Below are positions 13,873 to 62,594 of a stretch of DNA of 64,000 bases, piece by piece. Made by a program: the position numbers and the translations under genes. The stretch is taken from the NCBI GenBank assembly GCA_963847185.1, contig CAWJYV010000008.1, forward strand, positions 1,088,001-1,152,000, read 5' to 3'. Every line of letters starts with the position of its first letter. Within the stretch, counting starts at the first letter, position 1. Source of the DNA: an uncultured Methanosarcinaceae archaeon (GTDB taxonomy: Archaea > Halobacteriota > Methanosarcinia > Methanosarcinales > Methanosarcinaceae). The notes under the pieces are model-generated. The model saw nothing but the letters and a program-made list of their open reading frames with translations. It did no database searches and had not been told where the DNA came from.

Positions 13873-15347
<1,475 letters not shown>

Positions 15348-15431
15348 AAGCACAAAACACACCAACCAGATGCCGATAAACCGAACAAAATCCTCAAACC
15401 AGAGATCCATTGTGGATCTCTAGTCTCTCTC

Positions 15432-15504
15432 GGGCTTGTAGATCAGCTGGAAGATCGCTGCCTTTGCAAGGCAGAGGCCCTGGGTTCGAGTCCCAGCAAG
15501 TCCA
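15432..15504 (+). tRNA. tRNA-Ala(TGC) in the 16S-23S spacer
   Basis: Acceptor stem GGGCTTG...CAAGTCC, anticodon arm CTGCC-TTTGCAA-GGCAG, T-loop GGTTCGAGTCC. Confidence 0.97.
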
Positions 15505-15634
15505 TTTTTGTGCACCCGGTAAGTAAATTATCGGGGAAGGACGGATCGCCTGTGCGGAACCGCAGGCTCATGAAGTCATGTATAGGTGCTGTATACTGGA
15601 CGCTAACTGGACCTGGTTAGGATATACAGGAATT

Positions 15635-18530
<2,896 letters not shown>

Positions 18531-18609
18531 CAGGTCCAGGCGAAATCCAGTATGCAGCACATATCCTATACATGACTTTTAGTCTTTCACAAAATCCTCT
18601 TTATATGTT

Positions 18610-18736
18610 GAGTGTGGCGGCCATAGCGTCAGGGCAACTCCTGTACCCATTCCGAACACAGCAGATAAGCCTGTCCACGTTCCTTACTGTACTGAAGTAC
18701 GCGAGTCTTCGGGAACTCTGGATCGCTGCCATACTC
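18610..18736 (+). rRNA. rrf: 5S ribosomal RNA
   Basis: Helix I GAGTGTGGCGGC...GCTGCCATACTC and CCCATTCCGAACAC loop. Confidence 0.95.
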
Positions 18737-52778: not shown

Positions 52779-55317
52779 TTGAGTGAGCAGCCAGCAACAC
52801 ATGAGAGGACTTACAGTCAGATTTCAGATGAAAGGATAAAGGCTGCACGGCAGCTAGGGACTTATTTTGAGGTTTATCCTGACAGGAGACAGGCTTTTGA
52901 AGACCTTTTACGGCTTTGTTCTGACAGGGACAGTGTAGTAAGGGAAGAGGCTGTAAATTCCCTTGCAACAGTTTTTCCGAATGTGCCTGATAGAGAGGCG
53001 GTATGGAAGCAATTTATAAATCTTACGGCTTATCCGGAAGAAAGAGTCATAAGGGCCGCAGTAAGCTCTCTTATTAGTGTTTTTTCTCTGATGCCGGATA
53101 AGAAAAAGGCATGGGGGGATCTCGTTGAGCTGGCACATTCGAAGTCAAGCCTGGAAGATGTGAGCAGGGGAATTGTCAGTTCATTTTCGGATTTCATCAA
53201 GGAGATTCCGGATAAGCAGCATGTGTGGAAAGACCTGCTTGATATGACAGCATCAACTGACATTTATGTCAGGGAGGAAGCGGCTTCCCTCTTAAGTATT
53301 GTTTTTCCTGAGTTGTCAGATGAAAATAAAGAAGAAGCCTGGAATGAACTGCTGGAGCTAGCTGACTGAATCTACTACTGAATCTGATAATACAAAAGTA
53401 AGAGAACAGGCTGCAAGGACTCTTGGAGCAGTCTTTATGGATATGCCAGCTCAAAAGAAGGATGAGGCCCTGGATGGGCTGCTGGAACTTGCAGTTTCAG
53501 AAAGCCCTGAGGTTCAAAAAGAGATTCTTCTGGCTCTGCCCTATGTTTTTTCACATATTTCGGATAAAATAAGAGCATGGGATAATATTCTCAGGCTTAC
53601 TGGAAACGAAAAAGAATCCGTACGAAAGAAAGCTGCAGATGCCCTATTCTCAATGTTTCCTGATATGCCGGATAAGAGTAAAGTCTGGACTGGTTTCTTC
53701 TACCTGATCAGGGCAAAAGACGAGTATGTACGGGCTGTGGCAATAAATGGGCTTGTATCTCTGTTTCCTTCACTGGAAGACAAAGATTCCTTCTGGAAAG
53801 AGATTGTTGAACTTACAGATAATAACGAAGAATATGTCCAGAGAGCAGCCATTGGCACGCTGGGCAAGGTTTTTCCTTATCTTCCCAATAGAAAAGAGGC
53901 ATACACAGAACTCGCGAATTTTGCTGATAAAAACGATAATAACATGCTTAAGAAGTTACTAGTGACCCTTGAATCTGATAATCCGCAGTTTTCCGATAAG
54001 TACGAAAAGAATGAAGAGGAATCGAAAGAGACGGAAAAAGAAAGAGTTGGGAATGAGCAGGCCCGGGTAAGCAGAAAGCTAATTTCTGACTCCCTCGGAC
54101 CTGCAGATGACAGCAATTCTTACATCCAAAAAGATGAGGTAAAACCCTTTGTCTGGACACACTCCTATCCGCCGGAAAAAAACGAAGTAATAAAGGAACT
54201 CATTAATCTGAGTTCAAGCCAGGATTCACAGGGATTGAGGGATATAGAGTCCTTGCTTGCTCTTTATTCAAGACACTCGGGAAAAATGCAGGACATCTGG
54301 AATGAACTACTTAAGATAATAGAGGGTAAAGATACGGGTGCCAGAAGGAATGCCGCAGGGCTGCTCCCATATATCTTTCCAGGAGTTGAGGATAAATCCA
54401 GAGCCCTTCAAGATCTGCTCAGGCTAACTGAAAGTCAGGATTCTCAGCTCCGAAAAACTGCCGCTGAAATCTTTGCCACTGCTTTTGAATATTCTGAAAA
54501 TAAACAGAGAACATGGGACGAGTTTGTCAGGCTTGCTTCTTTTGAGGACAGGGAGGTAAGAAAAAGAGCTGTCCTTGCTCTGTCATTAGGCTTTGCAGAA
54601 GTTCCTGATAAAGAAAAAGCATGGAGGGACCTGCTCAAGCTTTCAGTTCATAGCGACAGTTTTGTACAGAGAGCTGCAACGAGGGCGCTTGGCCCTGCCT
54701 TTTATCAGGTTCCGGATAAAACTCAGGCATGGAGAGACCTTCAGGTGCTTACTGATAACCCGTACATCTATGTCCGGAGGTATGCTTTTCGCTCCCTTGC
54801 AAGAGCTTCTCTCTGGAGGGCTTTAAAGGCGGAAAACGAAGCTGCTTTTATCTTCGGGTTAAAAGAGGCTGTCAAATACTATGAAAAAGCAGCTGAAACT
54901 TTTGTTGACGTTAATATTCCTGAATTCTATCTACCCTTTTATGAAGCTCTTTTATTCATTCTCTTTGGTGACAGGCCCGGGAGATCAAGACTTGAAAGCG
55001 GAAGATATCTCACGAGAGTGACCGGTGGGCTCAGGGATCAAAAAGAAAACCAGTATGTTCTCGAAGCTCTCGAACAGTTTACAGACCTTTTAAGAAATGC
55101 AGAAAATTTAGCAACAAGTAGCCTGTCTGCCCGGAAAAAACTGCTTGAAACCTGCATTTTGACTTTTGATAGATATTCAAGCCTTTTTGAAAGCGTGGAA
55201 GAAAAAGAAATTCTTGCTCCTAAAACGGTGAAAAAAGAGCACCATGAACCTGGAAAAGCAATTCTGGAGAAAGTAGAGAAGAAGAAATTATTCCTGTTAA
55301 GAAACCGTAAAAAATAA
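52779..55317 (+). pseudogene. HEAT-repeat protein split by a frameshift (52779-53369 and 53437-55317)
   Basis: Both parts carry the ~38-aa repeat VR..AA..L...F...PDK..AW.DL..L. The second frame is open back to ~53365. Confidence 0.75.
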
Positions 55318-55435: not shown

Positions 55436-55809
55436 TATGAAAATAAACTGTAAGTAATATGCCATGAGAAAGTTAAGCCTGGGTTTTTTGTCCTGCACTT
55501 TAATATCTTATCCTGCCAATTCCCTGTTATGTACGAGGCAGGAATCGAATTAACAGATTCGGACTTTGAGTTTGCAAAACCTCCCGTAAAGAAACAGCTC
55601 GTAAAGAAACAGCTCGTGAAGAAACAGCTCGTGAAGAAACAGCTCGTAAAAAACAGACCCTATGAAAATAAACTGTAAGTAATATGCCATGAGAAAGTTA
55701 AGCCTGGGTTTTTTGTCCTGCACTTTAATATCTTATCCTGCCAATTCCCTGTTATGTACGAGGCAGGAATCGAATTAACAGATTCGGACTTTGAGTTTGC
55801 AAAACCTCC
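55375..55809. repeat. Near-perfect tandem duplication (210 bp + 225 bp)
   Basis: 55375-55584 is repeated at 55585-55809 with one extra 15-bp unit. It includes the upstream region and first ~19 codons of the next gene. Confidence 0.93.
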
Positions 55810-56068
55810 TTTTTCAAGAAAATTCATTCGCCTGGTATTCGAAAAATACCAGATTAATTTTATCGTTTACTTTGGCGAAAATATGTTCTATGTCTCAGGA
55901 CAAAATTCTGAGCCTCTTGTACCCTTATATCCAAAAACAACGTACCCTGAAGATATAGAACTTGTGCTGGATTTTATGGTGCGTGAGAGAATTCGCAGAA
56001 TTAAATTTGAGGACGGAAAACTTTTTCGATCCGCAGTTCCTGAACTGAACAACTCAGGTAGGGGTTAA
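55754..56068 (+). CDS. Hypothetical protein (104 aa)
   Basis: Clean ORF with typical composition, no family recognised. Confidence 0.7.
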   Translation: MYEAGIELTDSDFEFAKPPFSRKFIRLVFEKYQINFIVYFGENMFYVSGQNSEPLVPLYPKTTYPEDIELVLDFMVRERIRRIKFEDGKLFRSAVPELNNSGRG

Positions 56069-56280
56069 GGCAAGAGTTAACTAGCAGTCAGATAGTTTAC
56101 CTGAAACATGGATAGGGAGTAAGAAAAAATTGCTAAATTTGTCACTTAAGAAAGGGACATTTAAATCTGTCAAGAGAAAGCAAAAATTACTTTTTTTCTT
56201 TTGTTTTAGTTATTTATAGTTTCACCGCAATATTAATTTATTGAAATTTACTATTTATCGCTAACAAGAGGGGGTATCAA

Positions 56281-56466
56281 GTGATAAAACTATGGGAGTA
56301 TGATGCTCGCAGGATTCACGCAGTACACATGCCACAGCAGATGAGCGACCTCGAAAGAATCGGAAATGAAGGTTGGGAACTTGTTGTTATTAAGGATGAT
56401 ATTGATGAAGAAGGGACAGTAACTGCAATTTTTAAAAGGGAGAAAGCAAACATAGGAGAAGAGTGA
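56281..56466 (+). CDS. Small DUF4177-like protein (61 aa)
   Basis: WEY...L..IG.EGWELV...IFKR pattern and GAGGGGG SD. Confidence 0.7.
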   Translation: MIKLWEYDARRIHAVHMPQQMSDLERIGNEGWELVVIKDDIDEEGTVTAIFKREKANIGEE

Positions 56467-56516
56467 CTGATTCAGACTTACTGCTTTTAACCTGATATAT
56501 TTTAATTTACTTATCT

Positions 56517-56581
<65 letters not shown>

Positions 56582-56700
56582 GCCTATTTCTTTCAACTTA
56601 CTAAATATGCAGGCGGAAACCTTCATATCTAAATTTTTACCGCAGAAAGAAGGAAAGAATATTAACATTTGTTTAATATTTGTTCATTTTGAAGAAAAGA

Positions 56701-56901
56701 TTGCGTTCCCATCTTGAATCTTTGGAAGTTCCGAACGGCACTTAAGAGATCTTTTATGAAGAGGTTTAGTATTGGACTCAAGGGTTGTGAGCTCTCTAAT
56801 TATTTTCTCTTCACTTATAGAGTAGATTTTTCGGAGTAGGCGTTGAAGTAGTTCTTGTGGAATAGGTCTTTGCTCTGTGGTCTTGATAGATGAGAACGCA
56901 A
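56701..56901 (-). ncRNA. Candidate structured ncRNA, paralog A
   Basis: 14-bp terminal stem UUGCGUUCUCAUCU/AGAUGGGAACGCAA, TATA TTATATAG 27 nt upstream, pyrimidine tail, internal motifs shared with 57755-57944. Confidence 0.65.
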
Positions 56902-57259
56902 TTTATACTAGGACCTCAACCTATATAATATTTTTAATGTATAATAATATTTTATTTTTCTATTCCTGCATTATTAATCTAACTTTTTTTCATTGGTCTA
57001 ACTTTACAACACCAAACTTTGGTCATCCAATGGTGCATCCTCAAAAATTACAGCTTATCTTATTTTAGAGTAATTAAAATCGGTCAGTTGCTGTTGAAAT
57101 TAGTAATCAAGAAGTTTATACTTTTAACTTTTAATACAATAAACCGCAAACAGCTATTCAAAATCAGTATAAATATATTTATTTGATTTTTTAGAAAATA
57201 ATAAATACTGTTATATCTAATTATTTTTATGGATTGATAGAACATCAGGAGGAATAGGT

Positions 57260-57619
57260 ATTAAAAAACTTAATTTTATTTTGATCTTACTTGTCTTAGC
57301 ATTACTGACAGTAAACCCCGCTGCTTCAAGACCAGAGAGAATAATAATAAGAGAAAGTACACTTATATATCCTGCTGGCTCATATTATGAAAAGAATCCC
57401 ATGTTTTTGAGCATTCACACATCTGGAAATTATAGTAAGGTACAAAATCAGATGCCCACATTGAATGAAGCTCCTGGAAACTCTGAAAACAGAAAAGAAG
57501 ATATATCTCCGTATAATTCCGATGATCAAACAAATCGTTACAGGAAATTTGACATCGGATATTGCTGTATGCGAATTGACAATTTTCTTTTTTCCTGGAG
57601 AATTTCTGACGTATCCTGA
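57260..57619 (+). CDS. Small secreted hypothetical protein, possibly ATT-initiated
   Basis: AGGAGG lies 7 nt before an in-frame ATT (57260), giving the signal peptide (M)KKLNFILILLVLALLTVNPAAS. Confidence 0.5.
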   Translation: MKKLNFILILLVLALLTVNPAASRPERIIIRESTLIYPAGSYYEKNPMFLSIHTSGNYSKVQNQMPTLNEAPGNSENRKEDISPYNSDDQTNRYRKFDIGYCCMRIDNFLFSWRISDVS

Positions 57620-57754
57620 TATTTTGAAATCTAAAAACGCTAATTAAGATTTTGAAATACTAAAAGATAATGGATTAATTCACTTAATATTCTTAAAGGA
57701 ATCCTTAATAAATAGAATTTATGTTTGATTCAATAATTCTTTTTAAAAGAGGAA

Positions 57755-57944
57755 GCGTTCTCATCCAAAAAATACCTGGGAGTTCCGAACGATATTCAAG
57801 AGACTCACTTTATTTTAGTTGGGGAAGAGGTTTTGAGGTACTTTCACTTTGGTTGCGAGTTTCTTTTCTATCTCTTTATTTGTGGAGTAGTGTTCTGGAG
57901 TAGGTGTTGTCTGCTAGTGGGGTGTTAAAGAGATGAGAACGCAA
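57755..57944 (-). ncRNA. Candidate structured ncRNA, paralog B
   Basis: Same 5' end UUGCGUUCUCAUCU closing on GGAUGAGAACGC, TATA TTATATAT 27 nt upstream, tail UUCCUCUUUU. Confidence 0.65.
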
Positions 57945-58137
57945 ATTATAGTATGCAGTCATCATATATAATATTTTTAACACTTAATATTATTCGATCA
58001 CTCATTGATTAGTTCATCTCTATAATTATTTATTCATTGATTTAATGTTATACTACCTTACTTAGGATATAGATGAAAAACTGATCAAACCAAAAAGGAA
58101 AAACTAATTTCCGGATAAAAAGAGTCACTTAACTGGC

Positions 58138-60699
58138 TCATTTCATCCGGGTATTATACGTATGATATACCGTGTATATCAAATAAAGAAGGAAAGCCAG
58201 GAAGATGATATATTTTGTATACAAGACCTTTACCATGGCTTTCTTTTCCGTACTGGTTAAGGAGTCGCTCGTTATTCGCGAATAGATATCACCTGTGGTG
58301 TAAACCTTTCCGCCGTTTTCAAGCAGGGCTGTTCTGAAGAGGGGGTTTTCTCCAATATGAGTGTACTCGTCAGGACAGTTCGCTGATGCAGGTCTCCATG
58401 AAGAGCTATCTACACCGAACTTTTCAGGAGTAAGTTTTTCAGTCTGGTTTATACCGGCAGGTTTTTCTGAGATCTTATGGAGTCCGAACGTATCCGGGGT
58501 AACATATGACTCATACATACTGTCTCCGATAGGTGTTATTTCCATACGTTTCTTATCGAAATAGAGTTCTGGGGCTCCTTCTGTTTTTGTTGTGATAAGG
58601 ACTCTGCCTGGCTGATCTACTTTAAGGTCAGGAACTTTTAGCTGGATATTTTCCGACATCTCGGTATCCGCAACTGCCCAGTTAAGAGTTCTTGTAACAA
58701 TCAGGCTATCGTTTCCTGAGTAGAGGCCAGAGGCCCAGGGCATGTCATGGCCGTAACCGTTATCAGTCGTAATCGCTGCAACACGACCAAGGCCAAGTCT
58801 CCAGATCGTGAGAACGGGTTTGCCCAATCTTGTTGTCACGAGTCGGTTTGCTTCGGGTTTTGGAGTTACTTCATTATAACCTAAAACATCACTTTCAGTT
58901 TCAGGCAAATCCTTTGTAATGAAGTGTCTGGGGTCGCAAACTATCAATGAACCGCTGGAATAATTCTCCTCTTTTTCTTCGGACTCTTCCGAATTCTCGT
59001 TAGAGAAACTGACGTTAATTCTCTGTCCTGGTTCTAGCTTTTTGTAGTTTTCAGATAGACCTAGTCTGTTCATGAAGAGATCTGGATAATATTTGCCTTT
59101 GGGAGTAACCTGATATTGCGTTCTTGGAGCGTGAATATGAACAAAGTGAATACCTATCCCTTTTTCACGAAGCATTTTAGCACAATTAACTGCCTTCTCA
59201 AATCTATTATCCCCTTCAGCCGTATTGCCGATTCCTCCATCCGAAACTATTACAATTTCAGCATCTGCACTTTCGTTCTGTGCTTTAAGCAGATTGCGTG
59301 CAGTAATTAATCCTTTTTCGAGAGATGTCGAATCTCCGGATGGCTTTATTTTGCGAATCTCAGTGTCAAGCCACAATCTATTCGACTCTTTTGACATATC
59401 CAGGAATCCGTTAGTTATATCCTGTCCCTTGCTTCCGAAAGTAATTACATTTACTCTTGCATCTTTTAAAAGATCGCTTTCAAGAAGAAGTACTGCATTT
59501 GACAGGATATCGTCCAGGACCCGTCCTCCAACATTATTGCTTTGAAGGGTGCTGGGCGAAACATCAAGTATCAAAACGACATTCCTGCCTCCTCTCCAGC
59601 TTGAAGGCTTTGAGATCACCGGAAGGAGTTCTTCAAATTGTGTATTTTGATACGTGCTATCTGCAGGATAATCGAAAGAGTCATCTCCCCCAACTACCAC
59701 CATACCGCCTCCTCCGATGATGTATTTCCTCAAGGCATCGACTTCAGAATCTGAGATTGTCGACGCAGCCTGATTGTCGAGAATGACTGCATCGAACCCT
59801 TCAAGGGAACCGATTGATCTGGAAGAGGATACATCATAAACTTCATTCAACATGTTTGCCAGGGAAGAATCAGGTTCTTTCGTTACAAAAAATACCCTGG
59901 GCTTTGGGGTTACGTATACGCATTTCATGTACTGGTTATTGTTCTCAAAATAATCCAGGCTCTTTACATTTATGGCTGCAGGATGAAGAGTTGCTTTTAT
60001 TGTGTGCGGGCCCAGTGTATCGAAAGTATGATTGAGTTCAATGCTTTCTATTCTTCCGGTCTGAGTAATTTCCTTTTCCATTACCTGTTTGCGGTCAACT
60101 GTAACTCTAACCTGATACTTCATTTCGTTTTCAGTAGATTTTCTAATATTTAGCTTGAAAAAAGCCTCATTATCTATTACAAGCTCATTTTCTCCTTCGA
60201 TTTCTATACTGAGGTCCTCTTTGAGAGTATGCGGGATAAGTGCGGATACAGGGAAATTGTTTTTTTGGCAATAGGAGAGAGCCTCTTCAATTGAAGTTCC
60301 TGAATTGCTCTGTCCGTCAGAAACTACGAGTACATAGTTTTCAGGAGAAGCCTGCTGGATAATAGCATCCCCAAGAGAAGTATGCTGCCCCGAAAGCGTT
60401 GTAATGGTGACCGGGATCTTACTGTTAAGTTTTTCAGAAATGTTTTCCGGAACTCCCTTTTGGAAAAGCTCCATACTGGTACTCTCGTCAGATATTATGG
60501 TTATTTTGGATTGGCTGGTTTTCGGGAAACTCATCTCTGTAGAAAAAGGAGCTGCAAGCGCTATAATCAGGAGGGACGCAACAAGCGCATGGAAAAACAA
60601 ATGTTTTCTACTGATTTTTGTTTTTAGCCCCAGAAGTACGAGAATTGCCAGAGGAAGCAGGAGGATTAATTCCGTTTTGTATAGAAAATCAAAGCTCAT
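58138..60699 (-). CDS. Membrane-anchored vWA/glutamine-amidotransferase-like domain protein
   Basis: N-terminal TMs, DESTSM and LILDVSPST (MIDAS-like), VSDG twice, GGGMVVVGG, GLGRVAA and a C-terminal TM. Confidence 0.85.
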   Translation of the reverse strand: MSFDFLYKTELILLLPLAILVLLGLKTKISRKHLFFHALVASLLIIALAAPFSTEMSFPKTSQSKITIISDESTSMELFQKGVPENISEKLNSKIPVTITTLSGQHTSLGDAIIQQASPENYVLVVSDGQSNSGTSIEEALSYCQKNNFPVSALIPHTLKEDLSIEIEGENELVIDNEAFFKLNIRKSTENEMKYQVRVTVDRKQVMEKEITQTGRIESIELNHTFDTLGPHTIKATLHPAAINVKSLDYFENNNQYMKCVYVTPKPRVFFVTKEPDSSLANMLNEVYDVSSSRSIGSLEGFDAVILDNQAASTISDSEVDALRKYIIGGGGMVVVGGDDSFDYPADSTYQNTQFEELLPVISKPSSWRGGRNVVLILDVSPSTLQSNNVGGRVLDDILSNAVLLLESDLLKDARVNVITFGSKGQDITNGFLDMSKESNRLWLDTEIRKIKPSGDSTSLEKGLITARNLLKAQNESADAEIVIVSDGGIGNTAEGDNRFEKAVNCAKMLREKGIGIHFVHIHAPRTQYQVTPKGKYYPDLFMNRLGLSENYKKLEPGQRINVSFSNENSEESEEKEENYSSGSLIVCDPRHFITKDLPETESDVLGYNEVTPKPEANRLVTTRLGKPVLTIWRLGLGRVAAITTDNGYGHDMPWASGLYSGNDSLIVTRTLNWAVADTEMSENIQLKVPDLKVDQPGRVLITTKTEGAPELYFDKKRMEITPIGDSMYESYVTPDTFGLHKISEKPAGINQTEKLTPEKFGVDSSSWRPASANCPDEYTHIGENPLFRTALLENGGKVYTTGDIYSRITSDSLTSTEKKAMVKVLYTKYIIFLAFLLYLIYTVYHTYNTRMK

Positions 60700-62594
60700 A
60701 TGATTTTCCTCCTGAGCATGATAAAGTTTTCAATAATAAGCAGTAGCAACAGGATGTAAATTATGTATTTTCGGATTTTGTCCGGGGACCTGGTCTGCAG
60801 ATCTTCTTTTTTAATCTCTGCGTTCTCACCTTCCAGATCCAATCTTTTTTCCGTGAAGGTATTTGATTCTGCGGAATCGTAAAGGTTGGCAGCAACAGTT
60901 TTCTGGTTAAGGTGGTAGAGCCCGCATTCATCATAGTAAATGAACTTGCTGCTTATAGTTTCCGTAGGGGTTTTGATTATGGTATTCTGGTCGAATGCCT
61001 GGTACCTGCCTGTGTTTACATTGGTTTCGCTGATATCATCGATTCCCCATATATACTTGAGAAGTTTTGCCCAGAAAACAGGATATGTAGGGATAGTAGG
61101 GAAATTTGTCCAGGCTTCGTTTTCAATAGTGTCACTCAGCCCAACATAGGTCGTTGTCCCATCTTTTATATTCCACGCACAAACAACAGGTCCGACCCCT
61201 TCAAGTTCGGCAAGCACCGAAATATTATCCTTCGGAACAGCAACAAGATATTTGCGCAGGTACACCTCGTCAAATGCCACTTCCTCAAAAATATTGTTTC
61301 CACTTCCTGCAGTTTCAATCGTGTGGCTGTCTTCTTCTTTAATTGAAACTATATCTACGGGAAGGATCGGATAAAGCCCATGCATTTCTGAAGAATTATA
61401 CAGGCAGCCGTTTCCTATAACAATCAGATTTTTTCCGTTTTTCGCATATGTTACTACTTTCCTGATATCGGAGCTTGAAAGAGGTTCATACTCGCAACTT
61501 ATCACAATAGTATCATACTTTTCAAAGTCTTCCGGCAGCTTATTCTGCACATCGACATTATTATCAGGCATCAAGGATAGTGCTGTTATTACAGGAGACT
61601 TGCTGGAAGCAGGATCAATGTCTGTTAATATAAGCATTTTTTTCGGAGTGATTTCAGGAATGGAGATATGGGCAATGTTATCACAGGAGACTGCATCCTT
61701 ATTTTGAATTTTCACAGCTGAAGCACCCTCTGGAATACTGGAAAATGTTATTTGCTGAGCTCCGAACCCATCCAGGGAAAGTGAATTGTTTATTTTTTGA
61801 GGGGAAAAGAGCCCGGATTTACTTTCCAGTTGAACATCGAGCCTTGCACTCTCATTGCCGAAATTTTTGACAGTACACATATAATCATATGTGCCATCAT
61901 TACGGTCTTTCAAATAACCGTTTACGATTGCGTAGTTAATAGCGGGTTTACCTACCTGCCTGAACTCAAGTTGCATGTTTTTTGCGTTAGCAATTTTGAC
62001 GTATGTTTCAGGAGCCCTTCCTGCCCAGTTTTCAAAATCCGAGATCACGACGATTTTTGCATTTTCATTTTCCTCATCATTCACAACAGTAAGAATCGAT
62101 TCAGGCACATCTGCAGGTGTATCTCGAGCTTCCATGCTGCTGACAAGTTCTTTTGCGTTTTTCGAATCAATGGCCTTCGCAAGCACTACAGGAATGCTTT
62201 CCGCAGCAATAATTGTATTTTCTTTTCCCAGGCTCTCTATTGCGATGGACCTGGCGGCATCAATACGGTCAGGTACGCTCATGCTGGCTGAAGAGTCTAT
62301 TATGACTACAACTTTTTCCGAGTTTTCTGAAATGCTATCCAGTAAAGGACCTGCAATGGCAATTGATAAAAGGACCAGCGTAAGTAATTGTAAGAAAAAA
62401 AGAGGATCTGTGATTTTCTTAGTAATTTTGCGCCTGGAAGCGCTTACATTCTGGCTTATTCTTTGAACAAACATTAAAGAAGGGAGGATTATCTGTTTTG
62501 GCCTGGGTTTAAGTAAATATACTATTATCAGGGGAATTATACCTGCAAGTGCAACCAGGCCCGGGGGAAATTCATAGTCCATAGGCAGGATCAC
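60696..62594 (-). CDS. BatA-like N-terminal double-TM plus vWA domain protein
   Basis: IPLIIVYLLKPRPK...PSLMF (BatA motif), VIIDSSASM, VISDF and a C-terminal TM. Confidence 0.88.
   Translation of the reverse strand: MILPMDYEFPPGLVALAGIIPLIIVYLLKPRPKQIILPSLMFVQRISQNVSASRRKITKKITDPLFFLQLLTLVLLSIAIAGPLLDSISENSEKVVVIIDSSASMSVPDRIDAARSIAIESLGKENTIIAAESIPVVLAKAIDSKNAKELVSSMEARDTPADVPESILTVVNDEENENAKIVVISDFENWAGRAPETYVKIANAKNMQLEFRQVGKPAINYAIVNGYLKDRNDGTYDYMCTVKNFGNESARLDVQLESKSGLFSPQKINNSLSLDGFGAQQITFSSIPEGASAVKIQNKDAVSCDNIAHISIPEITPKKMLILTDIDPASSKSPVITALSLMPDNNVDVQNKLPEDFEKYDTIVISCEYEPLSSSDIRKVVTYAKNGKNLIVIGNGCLYNSSEMHGLYPILPVDIVSIKEEDSHTIETAGSGNNIFEEVAFDEVYLRKYLVAVPKDNISVLAELEGVGPVVCAWNIKDGTTTYVGLSDTIENEAWTNFPTIPTYPVFWAKLLKYIWGIDDISETNVNTGRYQAFDQNTIIKTPTETISSKFIYYDECGLYHLNQKTVAANLYDSAESNTFTEKRLDLEGENAEIKKEDLQTRSPDKIRKYIIYILLLLLIIENFIMLRRKII

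Follow-up and report, generated by a model that had tools for sequence, protein, structure and literature searches.

Here, we report that two short units on the minus strand of a 64,000-nt stretch of DNA from an uncultured Methanosarcinaceae archaeon (contig CAWJYV010000008.1, positions 1,088,001 to 1,152,000; this whole stretch is the window) almost certainly belong to a real, expressed family of non-coding RNA genes. The RNAs of copy A (56901->56701) and copy B (57944->57755) very probably fold as panhandles, in which a stem between the 5' and 3' ends closes a large loop. As to what they do, the best explanation as a whole, mechanism included, is that they are genus-wide panhandle small RNAs (sRNAs) of ~165-205 nt that act in trans by base pairing, which we put forward tentatively. 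A sequence-only reading of the window had proposed twin non-coding RNA genes, each independent and with a promoter of its own. The independence is upheld by the promoter spacing, the stem and the RNA-library contigs on both units; the units are not twins, given that the genome holds four copies that are part of a genus-wide family.

Read from the window sequence, the two units are paralogous and built alike. Both start with TTGCGTTCTCATCT, and upstream of both stands TTAAAAATATTATATA, a B recognition element (BRE)/TATA promoter located at 57965..57980 (-) for copy B and at 56922..56937 (-) for copy A, which ends 20 nt before the TTGCG of the unit, or 27 nt from the start of TTATATA. The 3' end of copy A, AGATGGGAACGCAA, is the complement of its own 5' end with one G-U pair, and the 3' end of copy B, GGATGAGAACGC, is the complement of its own with one U-G; a pyrimidine- or T-rich tail follows the stem in each (TCTTTTCTTC in copy A, TTCCTCTTTT in copy B). 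In a pairwise alignment of the copies 77% of the columns are identical and the motifs keep their order. The earlier description of two minus-strand units with identical promoter geometry, ends complementary to their own starts (one wobble pair per copy), pyrimidine tails and an ordered list of motifs therefore stands, including its count of four CUAYUY units in copy A and two in copy B.

Evidence from RNA libraries falls on the units themselves. Of the words sampled from 1701 nt around the pair, RNA-type public runs contain 5-12%, roughly one unit's worth. We followed up three runs on record as metatranscriptomes, one from sludge and two from sediment, plus a run labelled by organism, for which the RNA label is a guess; each of the four comes from a different study, and the small word shares of the other runs (X5-X18) are not taken as evidence. 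Contigs of these four runs cover 56710-56891 and 57740-57934 only of the 1701 nt, with zero cover in all four over the promoters, the outer flanks and the 800-nt spacer. Among the contigs listed, those of three runs (X1, X3 and X4) on the units are 31-203 nt long, except one of 2628 nt. Identity is at least 99% for three X1 contigs and for the only contig from each of X3 and X4. Several contigs in two runs end in Illumina adapter sequence, at 56891, 56724, 57760 and 57804, and contig word depth reaches the thousands in two runs. Short, adapter-bounded contigs are the pattern expected of discrete small RNAs, not of genomic DNA or long transcripts. The sequence-only reading had counted a lack of transcripts against itself; contigs from RNA libraries match both units.

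The stem identifies the strand of the RNA. Consensus folding of 55 aligned units (RNAalifold) keeps only one helix, of 11 pairs, which joins positions 3-13 with the last 11 nt. By this fold and by pair counts it runs in copy B from GCGUUCUCAUC (57932..57942, -) to GAUGAGAACGC (57755..57765, -), and in copy A from 56889..56899 (-) to GAUGGGAACGC (56703..56713, -), with one G-U pair. Standard pairs fill 604 of 605 cells, and sliding the 3' partner by 1-3 columns lowers the share to 31-56%. The figure loses weight because the 55 units were themselves chosen by a pattern that required the 3' motif at <=3 mismatches; this choice builds in part of the high pairing, but it does not dictate which kind of substitution occurs. 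The 5' strand of the stem is invariant. On the 3' strand, A<->G changes occur only at four positions facing U (45 cells), C->U occurs at one position facing G (2 cells) and the four G facing C never vary (0/220 cells). One stem pair shows a double change from U-A to C-G in three sequences, and a flanking TT...AA lengthens the stem to 13 bp in many copies. Such substitutions are wobble-compatible on the minus strand and make A-C mismatches on the plus strand; therefore, the minus strand is the RNA. The argument from the stem rests on which substitutions occur, and nearly all of them would keep the helix of a minus-strand RNA.

In the 4.04-Mb genome the promoter 16-mer has four exact occurrences, every one of them before a copy. 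From blastn loci in relatives we extracted 53 distinct units by requiring a TATA motif, a 5' motif within 40 nt and a 3' motif (<=3 mismatches); beside the 53 stand a match that was an artefact of the reverse strand and a unit truncated where its contig ends. From the end of the TATA motif to TTGCG the distance is exactly 20 nt in all 53, units that were themselves found via the TATA box. Given the usual spacing between TATA box and transcription start in archaea, the expected first nucleotide is the G of TTGCG or either T before it, which would place the start on the first base of the stem or just before. At the other end, 4-8 T follow a few nucleotides downstream of the stem in nearly all copies, a run that suits the oligo-T terminators of archaea. 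The pyrimidine/oligo-U tail of copy B (57741..57754, -), into which one RNA-run contig extends as far as 57740, is a probable archaeal terminator, as is that of copy A (56690..56700, -).

Four copies of the unit are present in the genome (4.04 Mb in 10 contigs), as found by a DNA search and a motif scan. The other two lie on further contigs, at C10:715318-715492 (copy C) and C7:598336-598528, with promoter, start and end as in copies A and B. A covariance model built from the 55 units (R1) finds the four at E <= 2e-24, and its sole other match in this genome has 19 bits (E 0.58). It scores copy B (57755..57944, -; 190 nt) at 175.5 bits (E 2e-34) and copy A (56701..56901, -; 199-201 nt) at 136 bits (E 5.8e-26, 56703-56901).

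Beyond this genome, the covariance-model search of Methanosarcinales that the sequence-only reading had suggested confines the family to two Methanosarcina-type genera among those searched. The counts are samples, and the negatives hold for the searched genomes only. With copy B plus its promoter as the query, blastn matched 19/19 other genomes of the same genus and 6/6 of one sister genus, and 0/95 genomes in 14 other genera of the family Methanosarcinaceae. R1 matched 34/34 same-genus and 6/6 sister-genus genomes, with 2-9 matches each, and nothing in 107 genomes of 13 further genera of the same taxonomic family. On a sample of the order it matched 12/12 genomes of the same genus and 4/4 of the sister genus, compared with 0/32 other genomes of Methanosarcinaceae and 0/102 genomes of five other families. 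A weak R1 match in a third genus (one of three genomes, E 0.0065, in a genome that is 72% complete) did not recur in two other genomes of that genus and is treated as noise. In a loose pattern scan of all species genomes, 17 of the 80 loci among the matches listed carry the family by an R1 match; 14 of these are titled Methanosarcina and three are unclassified Methanobacteriota metagenome-assembled genomes. The remaining 63 of the 80 listed are chance matches in unrelated organisms without a model match, as 15 specified bases are too few for such a scan. Across relatives the units are 163-207 nt long, and tandem pairs and triples with members 0.5-1.4 kb apart occur. Sister-genus units (for example, L051 1422-1625 and L052 1421-1622) contain an extra insert of ~30 nt, CCGUUCGGACCCCCC..., in which the CGUUCGGA motif recurs, upstream of the usual CGAUCGGAAUUUCCAGG block.

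Conservation is highest in the units and their promoters. In global alignments of the stretch from copy B to copy A with three congeners, the units together with 50-nt promoter blocks are 76-90% identical, compared with 24-69% for the 800-nt spacer and the outer flanks; for copy B the promoter block alone (57995-57945) is 84-90% identical in the three, against the same 24-69% of the flanks. In a tree, the 55 units fall into clades that each unite one paralog type from many species, not the copies of one genome; only the sister-genus copies cluster together instead. In the window the tandem pair is flanked by a VWA/BatA-type operon and, on the other side, by a small gene plus a HEAT-repeat gene. 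Of three distant congeners, two show both of these neighbourhoods beside the pair and the third shows one of them; a fourth congener is without the VWA side, and the context differs in the sister genus. We found no target-site duplication at copy A (...GTATAAA / unit / TCTTTTC) or copy B (...CTATAAT / unit / TTCCTCT), as the sequence-only reading had said, and collections of 72,556 plasmid and 50,697 phage records contain nothing that matches the family. Dispersed insertions lacking the TATA box, which that reading had named as contrary evidence, were not what we saw: all 53 units share the 20-nt spacing and the pairs are syntenic in three congeners. These comparisons show old duplication and vertical descent under purifying selection, not recent mobility.

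The ~165 nt of the loop are poor in G (A 39%, C 27.5%, U 22.5%, G 11%), and partition-function folding of the 55 units predicts the first ~85 nt to be 60-90% unpaired. Two CU-rich words are strongly enriched: CUACUCC occurs 49 times in 41/55 units (1.7 expected) and CUCUUCC 45 times in 45/55 units (2.3 expected). Between 0 and 4 modules of the CUAYUYC type stand in each copy, spaced at 12-14 nt. Four CUAYUY modules with this spacing lie in copy A (56819..56865, -; sequence and motif counts), and copy B has two tandem 13-nt modules of the GAACACCUACUCCA type with CUACUCC (57883..57908, -; Tandem Repeats Finder and motif counts). Further interior elements conserved in the 55-unit alignment are AACUCNCA and UUCGGAACUUCCAGG. 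Alignment and motif counts place a conserved UACCUCAAAACCUCUUCCCC block at 57821..57840 (-) of copy B, mostly unpaired by prediction, and a AAACCUCUUC block at 56757..56766 (-) of copy A; by alignment, a conserved CGUUCGGAACUCCCAGG block lies at 57775..57791 (-) of copy B, followed by a U-rich tract at 57766-57772, and a CGUUCGGAACUUCCA block at 56723..56737 (-) of copy A. The 12 nt before the 3' half of the stem are 44% U, compared with 22.5% overall. There is no conserved open reading frame (ORF) on either strand of the units, as the sequence-only reading had stated: the median ATG-started frame among the 55 is 3 aa in sense and 8 aa in antisense. An alternative reading of the GGAACTTCCAGG block as a replication-origin element, similar to an origin recognition box (ORB), was dropped in view of the promoter, the strand-specific wobble and the cover by RNA-library contigs.

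From these parts we propose the following mechanism. Each unit is almost certainly transcribed independently from a strong, nearly invariant BRE/TATA promoter at a fixed distance, and a stem of 11-13 bp very probably joins the 5' and 3' ends of the RNA, with a U-rich terminator tail after it. The paired, blunt 5' end and the stem-U-tail 3' end may shield the RNA from exonucleases and so favour its accumulation. The stem closes a G-poor, largely single-stranded loop of ~165 nt that displays one to four CUACUCC-type modules, the CUCUUCC block and the UUCGGAACUUCCAGG block, and the exposed CU-rich modules are probably the working parts. They would pair in trans, by short and imperfect matches, with purine-rich stretches of the GGAG/GAGG type, for example in the ribosome-binding regions of several messenger RNAs (mRNAs), and an Sm-like protein at the U-rich tract beside the stem may help the pairing. 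M. mazei sRNA162 is a precedent for pairing in the same genus and LhrC a bacterial analogue. That the RNAs are base-pairing riboregulators rather than protein decoys is a tentative choice, and we put pairing slightly ahead. The sequence-only reading had proposed either kind of role, as a protein sponge or as an RNA directed against several ribosome-binding sites.

Several observations weigh against this reading. The RNA-library contigs show neither strand, exact ends nor expression level, and their restriction to the units could partly reflect a higher conservation of the units in related strains. In the X1 contig of 2628 nt, the last 76 nt are identical to 57756-57831 in the 3' part of copy B and the rest is unrelated; the contig could be a chimera of the assembly or come from a different locus in a related strain. 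By the shuffle control the stem shows only weak covariation (45/500 shuffles reach the observed score), because its 5' strand is invariant. Inside the loop, an AAGAGA/UCUCUU helix is only 69% paired and a CUCRC/GUGAG hairpin 77-91% paired across the 55 units; both are only partly kept and neither is claimed as a family feature. A U-run of >=4 before the stem is found in 36/55 copies only. No target or partner has been identified. Complements of the modules stand before a start codon with a long ORF in 4.2-7.5% of cases compared with 3.3-7.1% for permuted controls, and canonical Shine-Dalgarno (SD) words do so in only 8-10%, which makes this a test of low power because even those words are barely detected. 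A search of the genome with the four RNAs (blastn-short) gave no complementarity beyond chance, the longest perfect match being 16 nt (E 0.15). Finally, the anti-SD core CCUCC occurs once in the 55 copies, compared with 24.5 expected from dinucleotide composition. Its near-absence argues against a simple mimic of the 16S ribosomal RNA (rRNA) tail, not against pairing with purine-rich sites; the shorter CCUC occurs 72 times in the same copies, and the 3' end of the genome's own 16S rRNA is GGAUCACCUCCU. Duplex predictions (RNAduplex) of the loops with 16S and 23S rRNA gave z from -2.5 to +0.5 against shuffles, with whole-length pseudo-duplexes that carry no weight either way. Taken together, the start-codon, complementarity and duplex comparisons, all of limited power, lend pairing no support.

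The strongest rival, in our view somewhat improbable, is that the RNA is a protein decoy or ribonucleoprotein (RNP) scaffold, the modules of which bind many copies of a single-strand-specific RNA-binding protein and titrate it away from mRNAs. An Sm-like, KH, TRAM or similar protein could be the ligand, by a logic analogous to that of CsrB/RsmZ or CrcZ with unrelated sequences. Module number varies from 0 to 4 between paralogs with the module sequence kept, the loop is unstructured by prediction and the units were recovered in RNA-type runs of several studies and habitats, all of which would suit such a role, as would the lack of any mRNA-like complementarity found, the avoidance of the exact anti-SD core and the U-rich tract before the stem (T 0.44 vs 0.225). 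However, the idea comes without a candidate protein, none having been sought, and without a conserved neighbour gene that links a protein to the RNA; the local gene order is ordinary and differs in the sister genus. No archaeal RNA that titrates a protein is known to us, a point on which no specific search was made. A bolder version, to which we give a rather low probability, is that the family is the first abundant multi-copy decoy of archaea, with an unstructured, panhandle-stabilised loop in which a variable number of CUACUCC/CUCUUCC modules titrate either a global single-strand RNA-binding protein or purine-rich ribosome-binding regions at large and thereby set translation capacity across the genus. 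The near-absence of CCUCC would then be a designed feature that spares mRNAs from a wholesale block.

Unlikely, in comparison with base pairing, is some other RNA role, be it a stable housekeeping RNP RNA or a precursor of shorter fragments, in which the CU-rich modules are not target seeds. The strong, nearly invariant promoter is conserved as a block of ~50 nt, the 5' 13 nt are invariant in nearly all 55 copies and the best-conserved interior element is the G-containing UUCGGAACUUCCAGG; processing into stable 5' fragments is described for M. mazei sRNA162 (PMC3510493). The contigs nevertheless span nearly the full unit (182/201 nt of copy A and 185 nt of copy B), so that a full-length form exists, and none of the 4227 Rfam families matches the units.

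Membership of the M. mazei sRNA162/sRNA171 family is very improbable. As described in PMC3510493, these RNAs are trans- and cis-acting, 191 nt long, constitutively transcribed and present in homologous copies with conserved promoters. The two copies are nearly identical, with homologues in two species, and the fold of sRNA162 has three stem-loops and a 39-nt linker; this single-stranded linker masks a ribosome-binding site. Both loci adjoin ArsR-family regulator genes (MM2441/MM2446): sRNA162 has such a gene on one side and MM2442, in divergent orientation, on the other, and sRNA171 is close to a second such gene. There are resemblances: the units come from the same genus, are of similar length (190 nt plus tail for copy B, compared with 191 nt) and have their own BRE/TATA promoters, homologous copies and homologues in other Methanosarcina. 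In contrast to that published description, the family has four diverged paralog types in this genome and is found in 40/40 genomes of two genera, and only its end-to-end stem is conserved. The ArsR neighbourhood is missing too: around each of the four copies, 17 kb on either side are free of ArsR-type helix-turn-helix (HTH) matches that pass the Pfam cut-off (neighbour Pfam scans and genome-wide HTH_5/HTH_20 maps), the nearest sub-threshold match being 4.2 kb from a copy, in a 286-aa frame. Small ArsR-like genes form a similar pair on two other contigs (C1:70520-71843 and C6:13612-13713; same model range, frames of 111-112 aa) and may mark the counterparts of the published sRNA162/sRNA171 loci; R1 finds no copy on those contigs. 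We therefore treat the family as different, set apart by the published descriptions of locus and fold.

The weakest alternative is that the units are miniature inverted-repeat transposable elements (MITEs) or another DNA-level repeat, with the 13-bp inverted repeat as a transposase site and transcription incidental; like MITEs they are short and multi-copy, with terminal inverted repeats of 11-13 bp in the DNA, but we give this almost no credence in view of the asymmetric conservation that includes ~50 nt of promoter outside the repeat, the absence of target-site duplications at either copy, arm mismatches that are nearly all G-U compatible on one strand, orthologous clades with positions kept across species, a low and stable copy number (2-9) and the lack of plasmid or phage matches.

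The surroundings of the copies contain several further features. Copy A is followed immediately downstream, at 56505-56581, by a microsatellite of ~19 ATTT copies (minus strand: AAAT). Between the two RNA genes, a 112-aa frame (57281-57619, +) has a hydrophobic, signal-peptide-like start after AGGAGG and no Pfam match; it is probably not conserved, as the spacer is only 24-65% identical in three congeners. The RNA pair is flanked by a VWA/BatA-type two-gene unit with DUF7408 and DUF7406 (58138-62594, -) and by a gene for a 626-aa HEAT/Arm-repeat protein (53437-55317, +); this order around the pair is kept in distant congeners, and a functional link to the RNAs is not evident. Near copy C, in locus L002 on C10, a tandem array of 5.8 copies of the 17-nt unit TTCCTTTGTTTTTGTCA (96% matching, L002 1775-1873) begins ~50 nt past the end of the copy, and the ParE-type toxin gene of a type II toxin-antitoxin pair (PF05016, E 4e-14; L002 185-448) lies ~1.1 kb upstream. 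The window also contains a complete rRNA operon at 13873-18734 (+), with 16S at 13873-15347, a spacer transfer RNA (tRNA) at 15432-15504, 23S at 15621-18529 and 5S at 18613-18734.

Methanosarcina is the main genetic model for methanogens. According to a review (PMC5867862), very few archaeal sRNAs have a known mechanism, those in M. mazei being sRNA154, sRNA162 and sRNA41. The present family is an archaeal sRNA family, no new category, that is well delimited and absent from Rfam 15. Its promoter is among the sharpest promoter signatures in the genome. With defined boundaries, a set of four copies and existing markerless deletion tools (PMC3177094), it is directly testable and a cheap target for experiments. 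If the RNAs are global modulators of translation or protein decoys, they would add a regulatory layer so far undescribed in archaea; if they pair with a few mRNAs only, they would be one more sRNA family, useful for the annotation of Methanosarcina genomes and metatranscriptomes.

Rfam 15 gave nothing overlapping either unit in 55500-59000 at E up to 10, and the whole window searched with its 4227 families at gathering thresholds gave only the rRNA operon and one tRNA. The claim of no resemblance to signal recognition particle RNA, RNase P, C/D or H/ACA RNAs is thus confirmed, and no match to an already characterised sRNA family was found. In full-text literature, strings of 13-17 nt from the RNA returned only an unrelated human primer, and keyword searches found no description of the family; the 2009 differential RNA sequencing (dRNA-seq) catalogue of M. 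mazei sRNAs lies outside that comparison, and the chance that these loci are already listed there under numbers is about even or better. Regulatory RNAs with repeated motifs are known from bacteria: in CsrB/RsmZ the motif is GGA in hairpin loops, bound by CsrA, and in CrcZ it is an A-rich CA motif, with Hfq/Crc as the ligand. As in these RNAs, the family carries many repeats of a short motif per RNA, with a repeat number that varies between paralogs, but the motifs differ and the units are archaeal and without an Rfam match. Y RNAs are among the panhandle RNAs, the main stem of which is made by pairing the 5' end with the 3' end. The family shares with Y RNAs an end stem that closes a large, less structured loop and is followed by a U-rich 3' tail, although its loop is much larger and CU/CA-rich and it has no match to Y RNAs in Rfam; no bulged Ro-binding helix was identified in the units, and no search was made for a Ro/Rsr gene. 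LhrC RNAs display repeated CU-rich, single-stranded motifs that are proposed or shown to pair with purine-rich ribosome-binding regions. They are bacterial RNAs of ~100 nt, with motifs in hairpin loops, a terminator hairpin and no sequence relationship to the family, for which pairing is only proposed. Like the family, LhrC1-5 of Listeria monocytogenes are several paralogous copies, some of them in tandem (PMC4132741, PMC5880928).

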